From: a virus
Length of the DNA stretch: 14,130 nucleotides
Reading direction: 5' to 3' (one strand)
Virus genome (UHGV): UHGV-0306157
Each line of letters begins with the position of its first letter. The stretch's first letter is position 1. The position numbers were made by a program, and so were the translations under genes. The notes below the pieces were generated by a model. The model was given only the letters and a program-made list of their open reading frames with translations, had not been told where the DNA came from and ran no database searches. Below are positions 755 to 7,999 of this stretch, one piece after another.

Positions 755-907
755 TTACTCCTCAGGTTCGTAAGCTGTGAAGACAGCGACCTCCGTCTGG
801 CCGGGTCGGATTCGTACCTCGCAGAGGTCTTTCCTCGTTACCAGTGCCGTCACTATGACGGTTAAACAGATGACGATCAGGGCGATTAACATCGTCTTTT
901 GCTGCAT
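755..907 (-). CDS. hokD: Hok/Gef-family type I toxin (small membrane peptide), HokD/RelF-like, 50 aa
   Basis: Hand translation of the minus strand gives MQQKTMLIALIVICLTVIVTALVTRKDLCEVRIRPGQTEVAVFTAYEPEE: one hydrophobic helix followed by the TRKDLCEV...GQTEVAVF..YE signature of Hok/Gef peptides, closest to my recollection of HokD(RelF). Absent from the ORF track because it is under 60 aa. In-frame GTG at 910 is an alternative start. Confidence 0.8.
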   Translation of the reverse strand: MQQKTMLIALIVICLTVIVTALVTRKDLCEVRIRPGQTEVAVFTAYEPEE

Positions 908-921
908 CACAGCCTACTTAC

Positions 922-957: not shown

Positions 958-1057
958 TGTTATGTGCTAACTAACAAACCTCTTTTATCTGCATTAAAAA
1001 TCGCTATCATGTGTCATCCTCAACCTGTTAATAGCCTATTATGGACTTTAGTAAACA

Positions 1058-2887
1058 ATGAGCACTTCCGCATACAAGAGCAAAATTCGAACACTCCAGT
1101 GCGCGTTAAAAAACGGTGAATTTGAACCATTCATACAACATATCCGTTTTCCATACTTTAAAAATATAGAGCAGAATGCAAGGATCGATTTTCAGTTCCC
1201 TATAACGGCTTTAGTAGGAAAAAATGGAACTAATAAAAGTTCTGTTATCAAAGCGCTATTTGGTTGCCCACATGGTAAAAATATAACTCGTTATTGGTTC
1301 ACAACTGAAACAGATGAGTTTCCTGACCTAAAACTTGCTGATGGCAGTTCTCTTAAACCTAGATATATATATGGATATAAAAATGCTGATGGCCGTTTAG
1401 TTGAAATACTCCAAGCGCGTATCAATGCTACCAAGAAAACAATCGATTATTGGGAAACAAGTCGACCATCTGTTGGTGATAACATGGAGAGTATTTCGGA
1501 TGATCTGGGTGCTAATAGTAATGCAACCAGATGGAAAAAAATCAAGAAGGGATTGGTTTTCCTAGATTTCAGATCGGAAATAAGTGCATTTGATAGATGT
1601 ATGTATCACTCTGATTTTAAATTAAGAAAGAAGAAGAGCGGTGTATTAATTACAAAGCAAGACTATATCAGAAGCAAATCTAAATATATAAAGAAAGCTT
1701 TTGATGAAAAGCTAAGTAATTTAAGACTTTGGGGGACGGAAACCATTGTTAAAAATATAATCTTGGCGCCAGAACTAGTTGAGCACGTCTCATTTATATT
1801 AGGGAAAAAATATAAAGTCATTAAATTTCTTGAGCATCGGTTATTTGGAACCAGAGGAGGAACCGCTTTACTTTCAACTGATAAGTTGAACTATACAGAA
1901 GCTTTTGCTGGAAGTGGTGAATTTGCAATAGTTTCACTAATACTCAATATTTATTCGGCCAAACCTAATTCATTAATTCTTCTTGACGAACCAGAAGTTT
2001 CACTTCACCCTGGTGCACAGAAAAGGATGATGGATGTTCTGTACTCTATTGTTGAGCAGAAAAAACATCAAGTGGTAATATCAACCCATTCTCCTGTTAT
2101 TGTGAACACTCTTCCCAAAGATGCCATTAAATTATTTGTTTTTGATGAAGAGAATGAAACAGCTAAAATAGTTCAAAATATAGCACCGGATGAAGCTTTT
2201 ATAGAGCTAGGGCATGATATTAACAAGAAAACAATAATTGTAGAAGATAAATTAGCTAAAGCAATTATAGATAAAGCGATTAAAAATGATGAAAGATTAA
2301 GCTTATCATTTAGTGTAAGTTATATACCAGGTGGTTCGGAGACCATTTTAAGCAAGCATCTTCCCAGTTACGCTGTGGTAGAACGCAATGATATTTTGTT
2401 TTTACTTGATGGTGATAAAAACAAAAAAATAAAACCAGTAAGAATTAGTGAAATTGCTGATGCTGATTTAGTTAATACAATGTGCAAATATTATGGTTGC
2501 GAGTTAATTATCAATGCCAGTGGTAGTAATGGCAAAAAAAATGAACAAGAATCTAATAGACTCAAAAGGCAAGTGCTTGAGTATGCATTCAATAAAGTGC
2601 AGTATTTACCATTTGATACTCCCGAACAATTACTCATTGAAAAGGCAATTACGCCAAGTGAAAAAGAAATAATTGATTCACAGACCTGGAGTTCTAATGA
2701 TCCAGAACTGTATAAGAATCAAATAAGATTATTAGCGCAACACCTGTATGATAAAGAAGAAGTAAATGCAGAGGAGATTTTTTGCATCCAAAAAATAATG
2801 ACCGCAAGACTTAAAAATGAATTGCCTGAATTTATAAAAATAAGAAAAATAATTACTCAGGCTCTTGACCGTGGTATCATTAGGTAG
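1058..2887 (+). CDS. ABC-type (SMC/RecF/OLD-like, AAA_21-like) ATPase with putative C-terminal TOPRIM-like nuclease domain, 609 aa
   Basis: Long ORF. P-loop VGKNGTNKSS (nt 1217-1240, deviant: N in place of the Gly before Lys); signature-like AGSGE; Walker B LILLDEPEVSLHP (Asp at 1985-1987); H-loop ISTHSP. C-terminal part has IIVEDK (Glu at 2243-2245) and LLDGDKN (DGD at 2408-2416) about 55 aa apart, compatible with TOPRIM Glu + DxD. Strongly AT-rich relative to flanking prophage genes. Confidence 0.8.
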   Translation: MSTSAYKSKIRTLQCALKNGEFEPFIQHIRFPYFKNIEQNARIDFQFPITALVGKNGTNKSSVIKALFGCPHGKNITRYWFTTETDEFPDLKLADGSSLKPRYIYGYKNADGRLVEILQARINATKKTIDYWETSRPSVGDNMESISDDLGANSNATRWKKIKKGLVFLDFRSEISAFDRCMYHSDFKLRKKKSGVLITKQDYIRSKSKYIKKAFDEKLSNLRLWGTETIVKNIILAPELVEHVSFILGKKYKVIKFLEHRLFGTRGGTALLSTDKLNYTEAFAGSGEFAIVSLILNIYSAKPNSLILLDEPEVSLHPGAQKRMMDVLYSIVEQKKHQVVISTHSPVIVNTLPKDAIKLFVFDEENETAKIVQNIAPDEAFIELGHDINKKTIIVEDKLAKAIIDKAIKNDERLSLSFSVSYIPGGSETILSKHLPSYAVVERNDILFLLDGDKNKKIKPVRISEIADADLVNTMCKYYGCELIINASGSNGKKNEQESNRLKRQVLEYAFNKVQYLPFDTPEQLLIEKAITPSEKEIIDSQTWSSNDPELYKNQIRLLAQHLYDKEEVNAEEIFCIQKIMTARLKNELPEFIKIRKIITQALDRGIIR

Positions 2888-2910
2888 TGATTCTGGATGC
2901 AGAGGGAAAA

Positions 2911-3951
2911 ATGAAAAAAATCAAAGTGTTTGACTTCTTTTCCGGTTGTGGTGGAACCAGCCAAGGTTTCCATCAAGCTGGAATGGATATTGTTTTTGGC
3001 CTCGATTTCGACGTTGATGCAGCCAGTTCATTTCGTGCAAATTTCCCGCAGGCTGCTTTTATTAACTCGGACATTAGGTTAATCGACAACAATGCCATAA
3101 ACAAGTTAGTAAAAAAACATCGTAATGATTACATTCTTTTTTCAGGATGTGCGCCTTGTCAACCGTACTCTAAGCAAAACTCAAATAAAAAAAATGATGA
3201 TCCACGATTAGATCTATTAAAGGAATTCAGTCGTTTTGTAGAGCATTATATGCCTGATTTTATTTTTGTTGAAAACGTGCCAGGAATGCAAAAGTTTAAC
3301 AAAAATGAAGGAACATTCATGATGTTTTTAGAAATGCTTTCATCAAAGGGATATAGTGTAGATTATAAAGTAATGCCAGCTGCGTGGTACGGTGTACCAC
3401 AGACGCGAGAAAGATTAGTGCTCATTGCATCCAAGGATTTTTATGTCGCATTGCCTTCTCCTACACATGGGGTTGGAAATACTCCCTATTCAACAGTAAA
3501 GGACTGGATCGCTAATTTACCGAAGATAGAAGCAGGAGAAAAGCATAATAGTATTCCTGATCATGAAGCTGCACGCTTATCAGAGCTTAATTTGCGTAGA
3601 ATAAAATGCACTCCTGAAGGTGGAAGTCGAGAATTTTGGCCAGATGAATTGATTTTAGAATGCCATCGTAACCATAAAGGGCATACAGACGTATATGGAC
3701 GTTTGAGTTGGGACAAACCAGCCAGCGGACTAACAACTCGTTGTATTAGCTATTCAAATGGACGTTTTGGACATCCAACACAAAATCGAGCAATATCGGT
3801 TCGTGAAGCAGCGTGTCTACAAACATTTCCTTTGGATTATAAATTTATTGGTTCTTTGCAATCTCGGGCTCGTCAAATAGGAAATGCGGTCCCTCCGAAG
3901 ATGTCTGAAACGATTGGAAAACATTTGCTTAATATAATCAAAGCCTCCTAG
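2911..3951 (+). CDS. DNA (cytosine-5)-methyltransferase, 346 aa, all catalytic motifs present
   Basis: Motif I FSGCGG, motif IV GCAPCQPYS (catalytic Cys), motif VI ENVPGM, motif VIII QTRERLVLI, motif IX ISVREAACLQTFP, motif X GNAVPP, with a variable region between VIII and IX. ATG at 2911 preceded by GAGGG (2902-2906); the track start at GTG 2887 overlaps the ATPase stop. 23-nt gap to the upstream ATPase gene implies an operon. Confidence 0.9.
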   Translation: MKKIKVFDFFSGCGGTSQGFHQAGMDIVFGLDFDVDAASSFRANFPQAAFINSDIRLIDNNAINKLVKKHRNDYILFSGCAPCQPYSKQNSNKKNDDPRLDLLKEFSRFVEHYMPDFIFVENVPGMQKFNKNEGTFMMFLEMLSSKGYSVDYKVMPAAWYGVPQTRERLVLIASKDFYVALPSPTHGVGNTPYSTVKDWIANLPKIEAGEKHNSIPDHEAARLSELNLRRIKCTPEGGSREFWPDELILECHRNHKGHTDVYGRLSWDKPASGLTTRCISYSNGRFGHPTQNRAISVREAACLQTFPLDYKFIGSLQSRARQIGNAVPPKMSETIGKHLLNIIKAS

Positions 3952-3966
3952 GAGGCTTTATTTTAT
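3941..3966 (+). terminator. intrinsic terminator at the end of the ATPase-MTase cassette (possibly bidirectional)
   Basis: Perfect palindrome AAGCCTCC-TA-GGAGGCTT (3941-3958), which contains the MTase TAG stop, followed by TATTTTATTGTTAT; the convergent minus-strand gene ends at 3984. Confidence 0.55.
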
Positions 3967-3983
3967 TGTTATCCCCCTAGTAG

Positions 3984-4415
3984 TTAATCGTGCTCACCAG
4001 ACAACCTCCTGAAATTACTCTGGTAAAATGCCAGTACACGCTGCATAACTTCGCTTTTCCGGCACTTGCGACAGATTATGTTCTGACGCCTGTCGTAGCG
4101 GCGTATTTCTCCGTCTGGTAATGACCAGATAAGGTCAGGATCAACCACAACCGGTTTCTTCATCTTTGCCCTTGATAGTTTTTTGCGGGCGTTTTGCCAG
4201 TCTTTACGCGCCTGCTCAGACGGGAATAATCCGTAGCCAGAATTGTAAACATCACCACTGGCGACCAGTTCTCTGGCAAGAGTGCTTATGTAATACCTTG
4301 ATGCACCGGTTTTAGCCTCCAGAGCCCGTAACGTCTCGCGACCGCTCAGACGTACAAGTTCAACAGCCTGCCCTTTAATTTTTTCCCACTCTTCTGGTGT
4401 AAATACTTTTGCCAT
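3984..4415 (-). CDS. hypothetical phage protein, about 143 aa
   Basis: ORF from track; I place the start at the ATG at 4415 (MAKVFTPEEW...) because GGAGG lies 5 nt upstream; basic C-terminal region with CRKCRK; no family recognised. Confidence 0.55.
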   Translation of the reverse strand: MAKVFTPEEWEKIKGQAVELVRLSGRETLRALEAKTGASRYYISTLARELVASGDVYNSGYGLFPSEQARKDWQNARKKLSRAKMKKPVVVDPDLIWSLPDGEIRRYDRRQNIICRKCRKSEVMQRVLAFYQSNFRRLSGEHD

Positions 4416-4430: not shown

Positions 4431-5180
4431 TCACTTTTCCGATGCAACATGGCGGGAAGAATCAGTAATCTGTCGTACAATATCCCTGTGCTTGTTCAAC
4501 TCACGCAGCGCGACGCAGACACGCTCCCACTTCTGGACATGATTTTTCGCCCGACGCAGTTCGCGGTTTGCCATATGCAGTGATGGTAAAACCAGGTCAT
4601 CCGCTCGCGTTTCAGTAAACGATGGCAGCGACTGCACAATGTCCGCCACAGTTTCTGTTTTAATATCTTCCTGTGTTGCAGCCTCCTGTACTGGTAACGC
4701 AACACCTGCGGGCTGAGGAAAGGCCTTACCATCAGTTTCCGCTACCGATGCTGCTTTCGGCTCTGCTGGTAAATTATCGCCCGGTATGCAGTAACGAAAT
4801 TTACCGCCCTGATTTACGCGAATCAGACGACCTTTGCTGATTGCCATTGCCAGCGTTGAAGCCACTTTGCGTGATGTGGTACCAAACAATGTAGCCAGCT
4901 CATCAGCCGTTTGTGGTCCGCGTTGTTCAATCGTCGCGGTTAAATCGCTCTCCGAAATTTTTGTCACTGTTGTCGTAGTAGTTTCTTCCGGCGCTGGCTG
5001 TTCCTGCTGAACGTTGTTATCAGCCACACGCCAGGTGTACGCGCTTTTATCAACAAAACCAGCCTTTTTCAGTTCCCATAGTTCGTTCAGCACTTCTTCA
5101 CGACTGATATCAAGTCGCGCAGCAAGTTCTATGGATGTGGCTTTTCCCATTGCTTTCAGTGCGTCAAAAACAGTCTCCAT
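4431..5180 (-). CDS. hypothetical phage protein with N-terminal winged-helix-like region, about 249 aa
   Basis: ORF from track. Start at ATG 5180 ([44 protein letters not shown]) is preferred over 5231, which would overlap ydaV by 29 nt; GGGAGA lies upstream of 5180. Thr-rich linker [10 protein letters not shown]. Confidence 0.5.
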
Positions 5181-5202
5181 TAAATTTTTCTCCCGGTAAA
5201 AA

Positions 5203-5949
5203 TTACTTCGCAATTCCTGGCTGGACGACATTCGGACGCCAGCTCTCCCAGTTAAAATTCACCCAACGCCCGCCGTTCATGGTCATGCGATCCATAATCC
5301 TCTCGCCGAGCAATGGTTTCATGGCCTCATAGTTCAGGTTTGTCAGCATTCCCACGCTACGCATCGACGCTGTCCGTCGATCAATAATCTGGTGCAGTAC
5401 CACCTGCTCGTTTTTCGTCTCGCGCTGAATGCCAATTTCATCAAGAACCAGCAGATCCACTTCGCACAGCTCCCGCAAAAATTTTTCGCCTGACTGCCCG
5501 TCGTCATAGCTGGCGTGCAGGGCGCTCATAACATCAGCCACGGTAACCACAATCACTGTCTGACCGTCTTTCAGCAGGCGATTCCCGATAGCTGCCGCTA
5601 AGTGATTCTTCCCGGTACCAGGTTTTCCGCTGAACGCAAAATTTGTACACCCGGTCATCAGTTCATCGGCGATGGATTTCGCCTGGCTTAACGCGTATCG
5701 CTGCCCTTCGTTCTGCACCTGGTAATTCGCAAACGAGCATTTGCGGTGCAACGGCTGGATGCCAGAGCGATTCAGGATTTTTTCCACCCGCAACTGACGA
5801 TTCAGGCGGTTGATCTCCTCGCAACGTTTCTGGCCTTCAGCAAGTTGCCACTCGCGCCACTCCGCAACCGTTCTGAATGGGGCGGTTACATGTGGTGGGG
5901 TCAGTCTGCGGATACGCTCCAGAACGCCTCCTGTCGCAATATTTTTCAT
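5203..5949 (-). CDS. ydaV: DnaC-like replicative helicase loader (phage P-like replication protein), 248 aa
   Basis: Walker [22 protein letters not shown] and Walker [11 protein letters not shown]; near collinear resemblance to the E. coli DnaC AAA+ domain as I recall it; lies directly downstream of the O-like gene. Confidence 0.85.
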
Positions 5950-5955
5950 GGCCTG

Positions 5956-6744
5956 TTACCCCCTGAAGCCTGGCGGGATCGCACTGTCCGGCAACGAGAC
6001 GGTGTTAACCTGTCGGAGCAACGTCTCAGGCCGAACACCTTTCGGCGCGAACAGGCCCTGGTATTCATTGGCGATACTGTGTCGAATCACCTGCTCAGGT
6101 GTAAAACCCTGCTGGCGGAATTTTTCCAGCTCCCGTATCGCCCAGTTAGCGCCCTGCTCCGTTCGAATCGGTTTTCGCAATGCCTGCCTGAACCGGACCC
6201 ACTCATGCCAGAGTGTTTCCGGCAACCAATCGGGCAGCTCAATAGCCTCCGGCTCAAATTTTTTAGACGCTCGTTTTTGGCGAGGGGGATTTAGGGGGAG
6301 ATCAGTATTTATATCTTCCTCTTCCTCTTCCTCTGGTAACGCTTTTTGATCCATTTGTGTAACGCTGCCAGCGTTACCTTTTCGTTTCAGTTCGCGTATT
6401 TTTGTAACTCGCTCGTTTGTAACCGCCCGTTTTTTAGAGCTTTTCCCGTTATGACGTTCAAAGTTAGGTAGAGAAAGCCCACCGTCATTTTCGACCAGCC
6501 ATCCAACCTGAATTAACGCATCAGCAAAACCAGCCATAAAAGTGATGCGATCTATTGCACTTTTTGTAACGCCGCGAGCGTTACAATCTGCATTACCGTC
6601 TATCATTTGTTGATCCGCCCATGCCCAGAAGCGAATAACCTTCCCTAATGCGGCATCTGGATCAATATTCAGAATCTCAGCAAGCCTGAATATTTCCGGC
6701 TTATCCGGCGTAATAACCTCGAGCTTTATCCAGTTTGAAGCCAT
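5956..6744 (-). CDS. ydaU: phage replication initiation protein (lambda O-like, YdaU/DUF1376-type), 262 aa
   Basis: Position immediately upstream of the dnaC-like gene in a lambdoid replication module; acidic poly-Glu linker (EEEEEED); iteron-like palindromes embedded mid-gene; AGGTGA RBS upstream of the ATG at 6744. Confidence 0.6.
   Translation of the reverse strand: MASNWIKLEVITPDKPEIFRLAEILNIDPDAALGKVIRFWAWADQQMIDGNADCNARGVTKSAIDRITFMAGFADALIQVGWLVENDGGLSLPNFERHNGKSSKKRAVTNERVTKIRELKRKGNAGSVTQMDQKALPEEEEEEDINTDLPLNPPRQKRASKKFEPEAIELPDWLPETLWHEWVRFRQALRKPIRTEQGANWAIRELEKFRQQGFTPEQVIRHSIANEYQGLFAPKGVRPETLLRQVNTVSLPDSAIPPGFRG
6336..6423. repeat. cluster of GTAACGC-type repeats inside the O-like gene (candidate origin iterons)
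   Basis: Half-site GTAACGCT at 6336-6343; 19-bp perfect palindrome GTAACGCTG-C-CAGCGTTAC at 6359-6377; direct repeats TTGTAAC at 6402-6408 and 6417-6423; adjacent polypyrimidine tract at 6311-6333. Confidence 0.5.
6564..6586. repeat. palindrome TTGTAACGC-N5-GCGTTACAA (second copy of the GTAACGC inverted repeat)
   Basis: Perfect 9-bp arms read directly from the sequence; lies within the O-like coding region. Confidence 0.5.
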
Positions 6745-6756
6745 TTGTTTTCACCT

Positions 6757-6777
6757 TGTAACGCTCGCAGCGTTACA
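6757..6777. repeat. palindrome TGTAACGCT-N3-AGCGTTACA (third copy, noncoding, just upstream of the ydaU start/RBS)
   Basis: Perfect 9-bp arms; located in the ydaT-ydaU intergenic spacer 6745-6821, about 15 nt upstream of the AGGTGA RBS. Confidence 0.5.
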
Positions 6778-6821
6778 TTTAACTGATACCGAACAAAACA
6801 ATCCGGCACGATTAATTTCAA

Positions 6822-7244
6822 TCAATGCACTACGACAGAATCGCCGGGCGACCCACCACCGCTGAAATGTGCTTTCCGGTAAACGGCCTGGACTGCATCA
6901 TCATGCGCATCAATTGCCGTACTCAACGCTTCCTGCGCCGCCAGTAATGCACGGCGTTCCAAGGTATCGAAGATGCAGAGTCGGTGACGCAGCTCGCGCG
7001 GAAGAATTGCCAGAACCGCAGGGATCAGTTTCTGAATTTTTTCCCTTTGCGCTTTCGTTTCACCTTTCAACCAACGGTGATAGATATTCTGCTGATTGTT
7101 CCAGTCCTTGCCTGGTACAAGGGGCAATTCGCCGCCCCCCTGGCGCAGATATTCTTCAGTAATTGCGTTAGCGACCCACGCCTGCCCTTTTTCGGCTGCC
7201 AGGGCTAACAACACTGATTCGATGTGCTCATGCCTGATTTTCAT
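6822..7244 (-). CDS. ydaT: YdaT-family protein (Rac prophage; reported toxic partner of YdaS / CII-like regulator), 140 aa
   Basis: 140-aa ORF whose sequence (MKIRHEHIESVLLALAAEKGQAWVANAITEEYLRQGGGELPLV...) matches my recollection of K-12 YdaT; its start overlaps the ydaS stop by ATGA, implying translational coupling. Confidence 0.7.
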   Translation of the reverse strand: MKIRHEHIESVLLALAAEKGQAWVANAITEEYLRQGGGELPLVPGKDWNNQQNIYHRWLKGETKAQREKIQKLIPAVLAILPRELRHRLCIFDTLERRALLAAQEALSTAIDAHDDAVQAVYRKAHFSGGGSPGDSVVVH

Positions 7245-7483
7245 GAATCAACCGCTCCTATGCTGTTTTCGCTATGCTTACCGTCTGGGGGGAATACATC
7301 GTCAAGTCCACAATGAGCGCCAAGCCGATTAAGGGTAGAAACAATTTTTCTGCACTCCTCTAGTCCAGGGGTACGAAAATTTGCTTCGTAATTTGCCAGT
7401 CGGCTTTGTATCCACCCTAACTGAACAGCAAGTTGTCTTTGAGACAGCCCAAGCTGTTTTCGATATGTTGAAATTTTGTTCAT
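7241..7483 (-). CDS. ydaS: Cro-like HTH (XRE family) regulator, YdaS-like, 80 aa
   Basis: HTH motif LGLSQRQLAVQLGWIQSRLANYEAN; GGAGG RBS 6 nt upstream of the ATG at 7483; divergent from the repressor gene. Confidence 0.7.
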   Translation of the reverse strand: MNKISTYRKQLGLSQRQLAVQLGWIQSRLANYEANFRTPGLEECRKIVSTLNRLGAHCGLDDVFPPDGKHSENSIGAVDS

Positions 7484-7579
7484 TGAAAACCTCCGATGAC
7501 AATTTTAAACACATCTTGTGTTATATGGTCAAGCTGTTTTGTGTTTTATGTAAATCACGATTCGTGATACAAGGATGCA
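7484..7579. promoter_or_regulatory. divergent promoter/operator region between ydaS-like and racR-like genes (OR-like)
   Basis: 15-bp palindromes AACACAtctTGTGTT (7508-7522) and ATCACGattCGTGAT (7554-7568) plus half-site TGTGTT (7540-7545). Minus-strand promoter candidate: -35 TTGACC (complement of 7527-7532), 17-nt spacer, -10 TTTAAA (complement of 7504-7509); the first palindrome sits in the spacer/-10. Confidence 0.6.
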
Positions 7580-7999
7580 ATGGAAAAAGAAAACGAAAAA
7601 ATTGCCGCTAGTAGGCTCAATGACAAAATTGCAATGCGTCTTAAAGAGCGCAGGCAGAAGCTTGGTTTATCTCAAGGAAAACTTGCTGAAATCTGCGGAT
7701 GGACGCAATCGCGTATAGGTAACTATGAGGCGGGCAGCAGAAATGTTGGAGTGCATGACGCTGTCGTATTGGGAAAGGCACTTGGCATATCTCCTCCTGA
7801 GCTCCTCTTTGGAGAACAGGAATCTTCTGAATTGTGGTTAAATGAATCCCAACGAAAACTTCTTGAGTTGTTTAACCAGCTACCGGGCTCAGAACAACAA
7901 CGAATGATTGAGCTATTTGAAGTCCGGCTAAAAGAAATCGATGAGTATGTAGAAAAATATTTGAGAGGCAGGCTTAAAGATAATCCCCCACCGGAGTAA
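7580..7999 (+). CDS. racR: prophage repressor, HTH XRE family (RacR/cI-like), 139 aa
   Basis: HTH LGLSQGKLAEICGWTQSRIGNYEAGSRN near the N-terminus with a C-terminal extension; divergent from the Cro-like gene; AAGGA RBS; followed by a strong terminator. Confidence 0.6.
   Translation: MEKENEKIAASRLNDKIAMRLKERRQKLGLSQGKLAEICGWTQSRIGNYEAGSRNVGVHDAVVLGKALGISPPELLFGEQESSELWLNESQRKLLELFNQLPGSEQQRMIELFEVRLKEIDEYVEKYLRGRLKDNPPPE

Follow-up and report, generated by a model that had tools for sequence, protein, structure and literature searches.

The window analysed here, a stretch of 14,130 nucleotides of the virus genome UHGV-0306157, carries on its plus strand (1058..2887) an open reading frame (ORF) of 609 amino acids (aa) which RefSeq labels 'ATP-dependent nuclease'. 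The product is predicted to be an OLD-family protein with an N-terminal ABC ATPase, a TOPRIM nuclease and a C-terminal helical domain, and the next gene encodes a predicted C5 DNA cytosine methyltransferase (MTase). The Walker A motif, or P-loop, of the ATPase reads G54-K-N-G-T-N59-K60-S61 (1217..1240, plus strand; codons GGA AAA AAT GGA ACT AAT AAA AGT), so that N59 occupies motif position 6, directly before K60, and replaces the glycine that is canonical there. A preliminary description of this DNA had reported the GKNGTNKS loop in a cassette ATPase, and the ORF translation bears out its sequence, its position and the N59/K60 numbering; the cassette-ATPase assignment also stood, although the C-terminal TOPRIM nuclease and the MTase partner had not been recognised. 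We propose that positions 1217-1240 encode a genuine, working Walker A motif, that its asparagine defines a clade, and that the protein is an OLD enzyme within a horizontally acquired MTase module, a reading that the comparisons of sequences below make probable.

Domain organisation of the nuclease and its ATPase motifs

Searched with Pfam, the 609-aa protein matched AAA_21 (2.6e-20), AAA_15 (6e-20) and SMC_N, all above their cut-offs, and only an ABC-type ATPase was recognised; none of the Pfam Toprim models scored at or below 0.01. The best PADLOC profile was HEC-04 (4e-34, 116 bits; residues 234-459, matched to positions 162-383 of a profile of 494), followed by the retron type I-B ATPase-Toprim (2e-26), whose profile, ATPase-Toprim_I-B, covers residues 42-464; further matches were to AriA, PtuA, Old and GajA. 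An AlphaFold2 model of the protein had a mean pLDDT of 89.3 (about 90 at the P-loop), and in a Foldseek comparison of this full-length model with the PDB the best matches were the OLD protein of Thermus scotoductus, TsOLD (6p74, E 1.4e-12), and Gabija GajA, with PtuA, the retron I-A ATPase and SMC heads lower down. The heads of SMC, Rad50 and PtuA recurred among the fold and sequence matches. When residues 375-609 were modelled separately (pLDDT 94.2), the best matches were the C-terminal regions of class 2 OLD proteins from Burkholderia and Xanthomonas (6nk8, 6njv/w/x), which took the top four PDB places with a probability of 1.0 at modest E values of about 2e-3; AriB came next.

The residues of the predicted nuclease are also in place. 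The catalytic glutamate motif of the TOPRIM domain, V-E396-D397 (2243..2248, plus strand), is invariant in homologues and aligns with 'LVEDVLAK' of an ATPase-TOPRIM relative on an IncI1 plasmid, and both aspartates of the DxD motif D451-G-D453 (2408..2416, plus strand) are likewise invariant. The spacing of E396, D451 and D453 matches that of the metal site of HEC-04 (E319, D375 and D377). Beyond them lies a mostly helical domain (residues 461-609; 2438..2884, plus strand; model pLDDT about 95, helices at 468-604) that is poorly conserved, with few invariant columns. Because profile matches, invariant residues and fold matches agree, we assign the protein the predicted domain order of ABC ATPase, TOPRIM nuclease and helical tail; an ABC ATPase followed in one polypeptide by a TOPRIM domain with its glutamate and DxD is the arrangement of an OLD-family enzyme.

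The ATPase itself has the features of the ABC superfamily apart from position 6 of the P-loop. The signature-like motif is A284-G-S286-G-E288 (1907..1921, plus strand), in which S286, G287 and E288 are invariant among 69 non-redundant homologues, so the Ser-Gly pair of the superfamily is present. Walker B and the D-loop (L306-I-L-L-D310-E311-P-E313; 1973..1996, plus strand) follow the hhhhDE pattern, with D310, E311, P312 and E313 invariant, and align to the Walker B regions of TsOLD, AriA and PtuA. The histidine of the H-loop, T343-H344-S345 (2084..2092, plus strand), is invariant together with T343 and aligns with 'STHSP' of TsOLD. The statement of the preliminary description that the Walker A lysine and serine, the Walker B DEPE, the SGE and the H-loop are intact is thus borne out, as all are invariant or nearly so.

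A misassigned P-loop, with the true one elsewhere, was considered and ruled out by profile alignments, pairwise alignments and model geometry, which all place the loop at the site first named. The Pfam AAA_21 match begins at residue 49, and residues 26-69 align to the N-terminal Walker A segment of SMC_N. In a phmmer search of PDB sequences, ITALVGKNGTNKSSVIKAL was aligned to the Walker A region of T. scotoductus OLD, LTAIVGPNGAGKTTILRAI (GPNGAGKT), and the same alignment pairs the loop with GKNGAGKS of AriA and APNGAGKT of PtuA. In the AlphaFold2 model the loop lies between a strand (49-54) and a helix (60-68), the canonical strand-loop-helix, and the first glycine, the catalytic lysine and the Ser/Thr residue stand at the junction of the beta-strand and the alpha-helix, with G54 and K60 invariant. 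A sequencing error or a pseudogene was also ruled out, since 32 complete genomes and a cluster of 492 members share the sequence.

Conservation and origin of the asparagine

Close homologues were taken as the 120 best matches in a collection of 5.8 billion proteins, of which 114 were full-length. The preliminary description had looked to such an alignment to decide if the asparagine is conserved in the clade, and it is: all 114 full-length homologues, at 38-99% identity, have asparagine before the lysine in a loop of the form GxNG[TS]NK[ST]. They come from Enterobacterales, Pseudomonas, Bradyrhizobium, Microbulbifer and many metagenomes. In the non-redundant set of 69, the invariant residues are G54, N56, G57, N59, K60, S286, G287, E288, D310 and E311, together with P312, E313, H344, E396, D397, D451 and D453; S61 is at least 90% conserved, with threonine in a few homologues. 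In independent genomes the asparagine is encoded by AAC (20) or AAT (10).

With one genome per GTDB species, a wider scan gave 80 loci whose proteins are 30-41% identical. Their sources include Proteobacteria, Bacteroidota, Actinomycetota, Bacillota, Planctomycetota and Patescibacteria. About 30 of the loci have asparagine before the lysine and about 47 have glycine, and the two kinds are alike in length and architecture. A profile search that covered all of 1.84 billion representatives returned 577 clusters (50% identity) at E < 1e-30; among the best 140 of them the residue before the lysine was asparagine in 83, glycine in 49, serine in six, histidine in one and cysteine in one, and the Lys-Ser/Thr pair was kept in every one. 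No close homologue of the protein was found in the phage collection, and the plasmid collection contained distant relatives only, with canonical loops.

The origin of the asparagine was traced on a neighbour-joining tree of 143 sequences by Fitch parsimony. The tree has one large Asn clade, whose sister sequence (locus L008) has glycine, and two further Asn sequences nested in Gly branches, from a member of the Polyangiaceae (L069) and one of the Peptococcaceae (L072); parsimony places glycine at the root with three changes. On these sequences glycine appears to be ancestral, and the asparagine derived, marking one large clade and approximately two more origins; the tree being a simple neighbour-joining one, the number of origins is approximate. 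Since the variants with Ser, His or Cys share the background of the Asn clade, they are best read from their sequences as rare derivatives of asparagine. The change from glycine to asparagine requires two nucleotide substitutions with serine (AGY) on the path, and no reversion to glycine was seen inside the Asn clade, though serine intermediates are present.

A co-variation scan between the Asn and Gly clades returned many differing columns, for example P24, K/R65, H184 and F289. That these are an obligatory compensation for the asparagine was rejected: they are absent in the two independent Asn lineages, L069 and L072, which keep the residues of the Gly-clade background, and the basal Gly sequence agrees. 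It follows that no compensating change is required, and the differing columns are, judged from these alignments, clade markers, which leaves the scan uninformative.

The variant loop and the probable binding of ATP

A survey of PDB structures found position 6 of the Walker A motif to be in the alpha-L conformation and exclusively glycine, and the other alpha-L position, position 4, to be asparagine in GTPases of the GKPNVGKS type (PMC11959459). In the phosphate nest, position 6 has to be alpha-L for its NH to point at the beta-phosphate. Asparagine is the non-glycine residue most often found in this conformation, and the left-handed backbone at position 6 would explain the preference for it. 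By analogy with the surveyed structures, the asparagine is probably a conformationally conservative swap at the one position where only glycine had been seen. The backbone NH of N59 would stay on the beta-phosphate, and the backbone amides, K60 and S61 would still bind ATP.

One alternative is that the nucleotide site is dead and that the protein is a pseudo-ATPase whose nuclease acts without ATP. The exclusive glycine of the surveyed structures (PMC11959459) and the negligible effect of ATP on DNA cleavage by TsOLD in vitro would both suit such a protein. Decay, however, would not be expected to leave K60, D310, E311, S286 and H344 invariant and S61 at least 90% conserved, and the relatives that have been tested, namely HEC-04 (by the mutation K62A), P2 Old and TsOLD, all need the Walker A lysine for their function. 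Catalysis is also compatible with a residue other than glycine at position 6, since MCM2-6, with Walker A motifs of the form GDP[GS]T[AS]KSQ, form an active helicase (PMC2952866). We therefore regard a dead site as highly improbable. As the residues of the ATP site are fixed across hundreds of diverged sequences, the site is under selection and not decaying; from these sequences N59 is almost certainly part of a functional site that is neither degenerate nor specifically regulatory.

A second alternative accepts a working site and supposes that the asparagine has re-tuned it: by contacting the gamma-phosphate, the catalytic water or the signature or D-loop of the partner subunit it would slow hydrolysis and turn the protein into a long-lived ATP-bound switch or sensor, the latter a suggestion of the preliminary description, and selection would have kept the asparagine on that account. 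This would suit the strict retention of the asparagine in a clade whose members are as little as 38% identical and whose codons at this site have turned over synonymously, and the lack of reversion by way of the available serine intermediates; the Asn and Gly clades also differ systematically at F289, immediately after the signature, and at K/R65 in the P-loop helix. The co-varying positions are, however, confounded by phylogeny and are absent from the two independent Asn lineages, and Gly-type and Asn-type proteins have a common architecture and a common partner. We consider re-tuning of this kind possible but doubtful. In a milder form, the asparagine side chain may tune the rate of hydrolysis or the lifetime of the dimer, and its strict retention in such deeply diverged sequences is a hint that it is entrenched or of some benefit. 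Any such effect is likely to be modest because Gly-type orthologues with the same partner coexist freely. The preliminary description had suggested that the deviant loop could mark a sensor or a regulatory protein as opposed to a motor, but the loop does not by itself point to this: proteins of the OLD/ABC family are ATP-driven dimerisation switches regardless of the asparagine, and the canonical glycine is found in close orthologous branches that have the same MTase partner and are built alike.

The methyltransferase partner and the prophage module

The second gene of the cassette (2911..3951, plus strand, ATG start) begins 24 nt past the stop codon of the nuclease gene, and an alternative GTG start at 2887 overlaps that stop. 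Its product, labelled 'DNA cytosine methyltransferase' in RefSeq, matches Pfam DNA_methylase (PF00145; 5e-61) over its full length, PADLOC MTase_II (Type II; 1e-96) and TIGR00675, and the motifs FSGCGG, PCQ and ENV can be read in the translation. The catalytic motifs that a restriction-modification (R-M) system requires of its methyltransferase are thus present in this predicted C5 enzyme. Compared with solved structures, it matches eukaryotic DNMT1 best (catalytic domains, E about 1e-38), with the bacterial M.HaeIII and M.HhaI well behind at 1e-20 to 1e-14.

The two genes travel together. Of 5426 complete Escherichia coli genomes, 32 have the nuclease gene, ATCC 8739 among them, and precisely these 32 have the MTase gene. 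Of the 80 loci from other species, 50 have a C5 MTase gene immediately beside the nuclease gene, on one side or the other, and 21 more have one within a few kb. In one of the 32 genomes, that of E. coli EC11 (L001:12154-13984), the nuclease gene is frameshifted into two coding sequences beside an intact MTase gene, and this loss of the nuclease with retention of the MTase, taken with the strict co-occurrence, fits R-M genetics. A paralogous cassette with the same two-gene pairing (nuclease gene at 5001-6791, MTase gene at 6795-7835) is found in lambdoid prophages of E. coli (L084-L087), between antiterminator Q and the holin/lysis genes; its nuclease is 39% identical and also has an asparagine loop, GQNGTNKS. 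The collection indexes this cassette in 520 blocks, and its different site indicates that the module occupies at least two hotspots for prophage accessory genes.

In the window the cassette lies in a Rac-like prophage of E. coli, between a Hok toxin gene and DUF977/replication genes; RacR, KilR, RecE and RecT are also encoded by this prophage. The GC content of the two-gene cassette (window 1000-4000) is 33-37%, as against 48-55% in the flanks, which indicates recent horizontal acquisition. Just upstream of the nuclease gene and divergent from it is the gene for a Hok/Gef-type toxin of 51 aa (755-910, minus strand; 'Hok/Gef family protein' in NZ_CP027255). A terminator-like GC hairpin (3940..3959, both strands), a consensus match of a kind no more frequent here than in shuffled sequence, overlaps the MTase stop codon and closes the cassette, and a promoter scan likewise returned sites no more numerous than in shuffled sequence. 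The replication regions of the window (4431-7483) and of EC11 (L001:15081-19283) differ around cassettes that are 99.5% identical: the window has an ORF for a DnaC-like ATPase (5203-5949) and one of 262 aa (5956-6744), and the annotation of the EC11 region names 'replication protein P' and a DnaT-like protein instead. Different replication regions around the same cassette point to mosaic prophage backbones.

We propose that the MTase would mark and protect host DNA in the manner of an R-M system, as the linkage of the genes suggests. The OLD-like protein would bind ATP, and its heads would dimerise on unmarked DNA by way of S286, E311 and H344; dimerisation would then license the TOPRIM domain, which would cut by two-metal chemistry. 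Some of our own observations weigh against this proposal. Some Gly-type relatives adjoin a complete HpaII-type R-M system or GHKL ATPases, and the divergence of the nuclease correlates only weakly with that of the MTase (Spearman 0.24-0.37). When regions of the nuclease were compared separately with the MTase or with its target-recognition region, co-divergence was again weak and was uniform (0.15-0.37).

The neighbours of the more distant relatives bear on the same question. Larger defence islands associated with 5-methylcytosine (m5C) combine an MTase with a MORC-like GHKL (HATPase_c_3) ATPase and the ATPase/TOPRIM protein (L023, L024 and L011), or Vsr and an MTase resembling M.HpaII with R.HpaII and the ATPase/TOPRIM protein (L028, L030 and L052). 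Other neighbours are Z1 (L060 and L064), GmrSD_N (L015) and UvrD (L081). Most of the larger islands are in branches with the canonical glycine, L011, L015, L060, L064 and L081 being among the few that carry asparagine. Another explanation for these data is that the ATPase-TOPRIM protein is not the restriction endonuclease but an abortive-infection guard resembling PARIS. It would keep watch on the MTase or on an R-M system, for instance by detecting phage factors directed against restriction or methylation, and would respond by degrading a nucleic acid such as tRNA. This would suit the relatives beside a complete set of Vsr, M.HpaII-like and R.HpaII genes or beside GHKL ATPases; in sequence and fold the protein resembles AriA/AriB and PtuA, which act in this way, and the weak co-divergence and the swapping of partners are what a guard might show. 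In the window and at most loci, however, there are two genes, and a lone MTase without another nuclease leaves nothing to guard; the strict co-occurrence of the two genes and the loss of the nuclease with the MTase retained fit classical R-M genetics instead. A guard function thus seems rather unlikely for this protein, and the larger islands of the Gly branches and the weak co-divergence keep it a live alternative. Equally live is an arrangement like that of Type III systems in which the MTase supplies sequence recognition, which the easy swapping of MTase partners would fit.

Relation to known OLD enzymes and implications

Four classes of OLD have been published: stand-alone, GajB-linked, retron-linked and the split PARIS form (PMC10568477). 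The 609-aa protein fits none of them, because it has a conserved MTase partner. Class 1 includes P2 Old and TsOLD (PDB 6P74), and TsOLD heads the matches to the protein both in full-length fold and among PDB sequences. Class 1 genes are defined as stand-alone, however, whereas here a C5 MTase gene adjoins in the window, in the 50 other-species loci noted above and in the paralogous cassette. In TsOLD the Walker A lysine and the H-loop histidine are catalytic, H310A abolishing ATPase activity (PMC7049728). TsOLD combines a canonical GPNGAGKT loop with glutamate in place of the Walker B aspartate and a degenerate signature; the 609-aa protein, by comparison, has asparagine at position 6, but its Walker B is the canonical Asp-Glu and its SGE is invariant.

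With class 2 OLD proteins, including GajA (PDB 8SM3 and 8X5I), BpOLD and XccOLD (6NK8 and 6NJV), the protein has in common the ATPase, the TOPRIM domain and the helical C-terminus. Identity, however, is about 12-14%, the P-loop of GajA is canonical, and no UvrD-like GajB helicase lies beside the gene in the window, where the C5 MTase gene is downstream; a UvrD-like neighbour was seen only at the distant locus L081. As to the retron-linked class 3, no reverse transcriptase ORF flanks the gene, whose neighbours encode Hok and the MTase; no search for a non-coding RNA was run. AriA and AriB of class 4 are split, and here both domains lie in one ORF.

The single-gene ABC ATPase-TOPRIM defence proteins HEC-04 and IbfA are relatives: HEC-04 is the best PADLOC profile, and the ATPase-TOPRIM fusion and the spacing of the E...DxD residues are the same. 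In HEC-04, mutations of the Walker A lysine and of the TOPRIM acidic residues abolish phage defence. HEC-04 and IbfA are nevertheless stand-alone genes of about 500 aa without an MTase, and the profile covers only residues 234-459 here. The IncI1 plasmid pRHB39-C22_2 (CP057041.1) carries just after its replication gene a 503-aa ATPase-TOPRIM ORF (L082:1350-2861) that has a canonical GSNGTGKS loop, matches the retron I-B effector profile of PADLOC best (3e-40) and is without an entry in the plasmid gene table; it may be an IbfA-type abortive-infection gene of IncI1 plasmids.

Outside the OLD family, MCM2-7 and archaeal MCM are active ATPases with a residue other than glycine before the Walker lysine. 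That residue is alanine or serine, however, not asparagine, and MCM is an AAA+ ring helicase whereas the 609-aa protein is an ABC ATPase. Type III R-M systems (Mod with an ATP-dependent Res) have in common with our cassette the two-gene logic of an MTase and an ATP-using nuclease. In these systems, however, the ATPase of Res resembles SF2 helicases and is joined to a PD-(D/E)xK nuclease, and Mod acts on adenine at N6; the corresponding predicted parts here are an ABC-type ATPase, a TOPRIM nuclease and a C5-cytosine MTase. A literature search, itself incomplete and so no proof of absence, found no paper on this loop or on an MTase-coupled OLD class.

A bolder proposal, which we hold to be unlikely, is that the loop GxNG[TS]NK[ST] defines a hitherto unrecognised, MTase-coupled 'class 5' of OLD, a restriction enzyme whose TOPRIM domain is gated by ATP and which reads m5C status. 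In such an enzyme, direct contacts of the asparagine side chain with the gamma-phosphate or the trans signature would make the ABC head a slow ATP clamp, long-lived and permitting the cleavage of unmethylated DNA only. If this were true, no natural P-loop family before it would have shown asparagine as a functional replacement at the 'exclusively Gly' position of the nest.

OLD nucleases are widespread and mechanistically poorly understood, and how the ATPase gates the nuclease is the question that they pose. The large, selected Asn family, with its Gly orthologues and Ser intermediates, provides a natural experiment on what position 6 of the P-loop requires. The pairing of an OLD protein with a C5 MTase in prophages of E. 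coli, including that of the tractable strain ATCC 8739, offers methylation-dependent protection as a simple genetic read-out for ATP gating, and an MTase-coupled OLD module would extend the current four-class scheme of the family.

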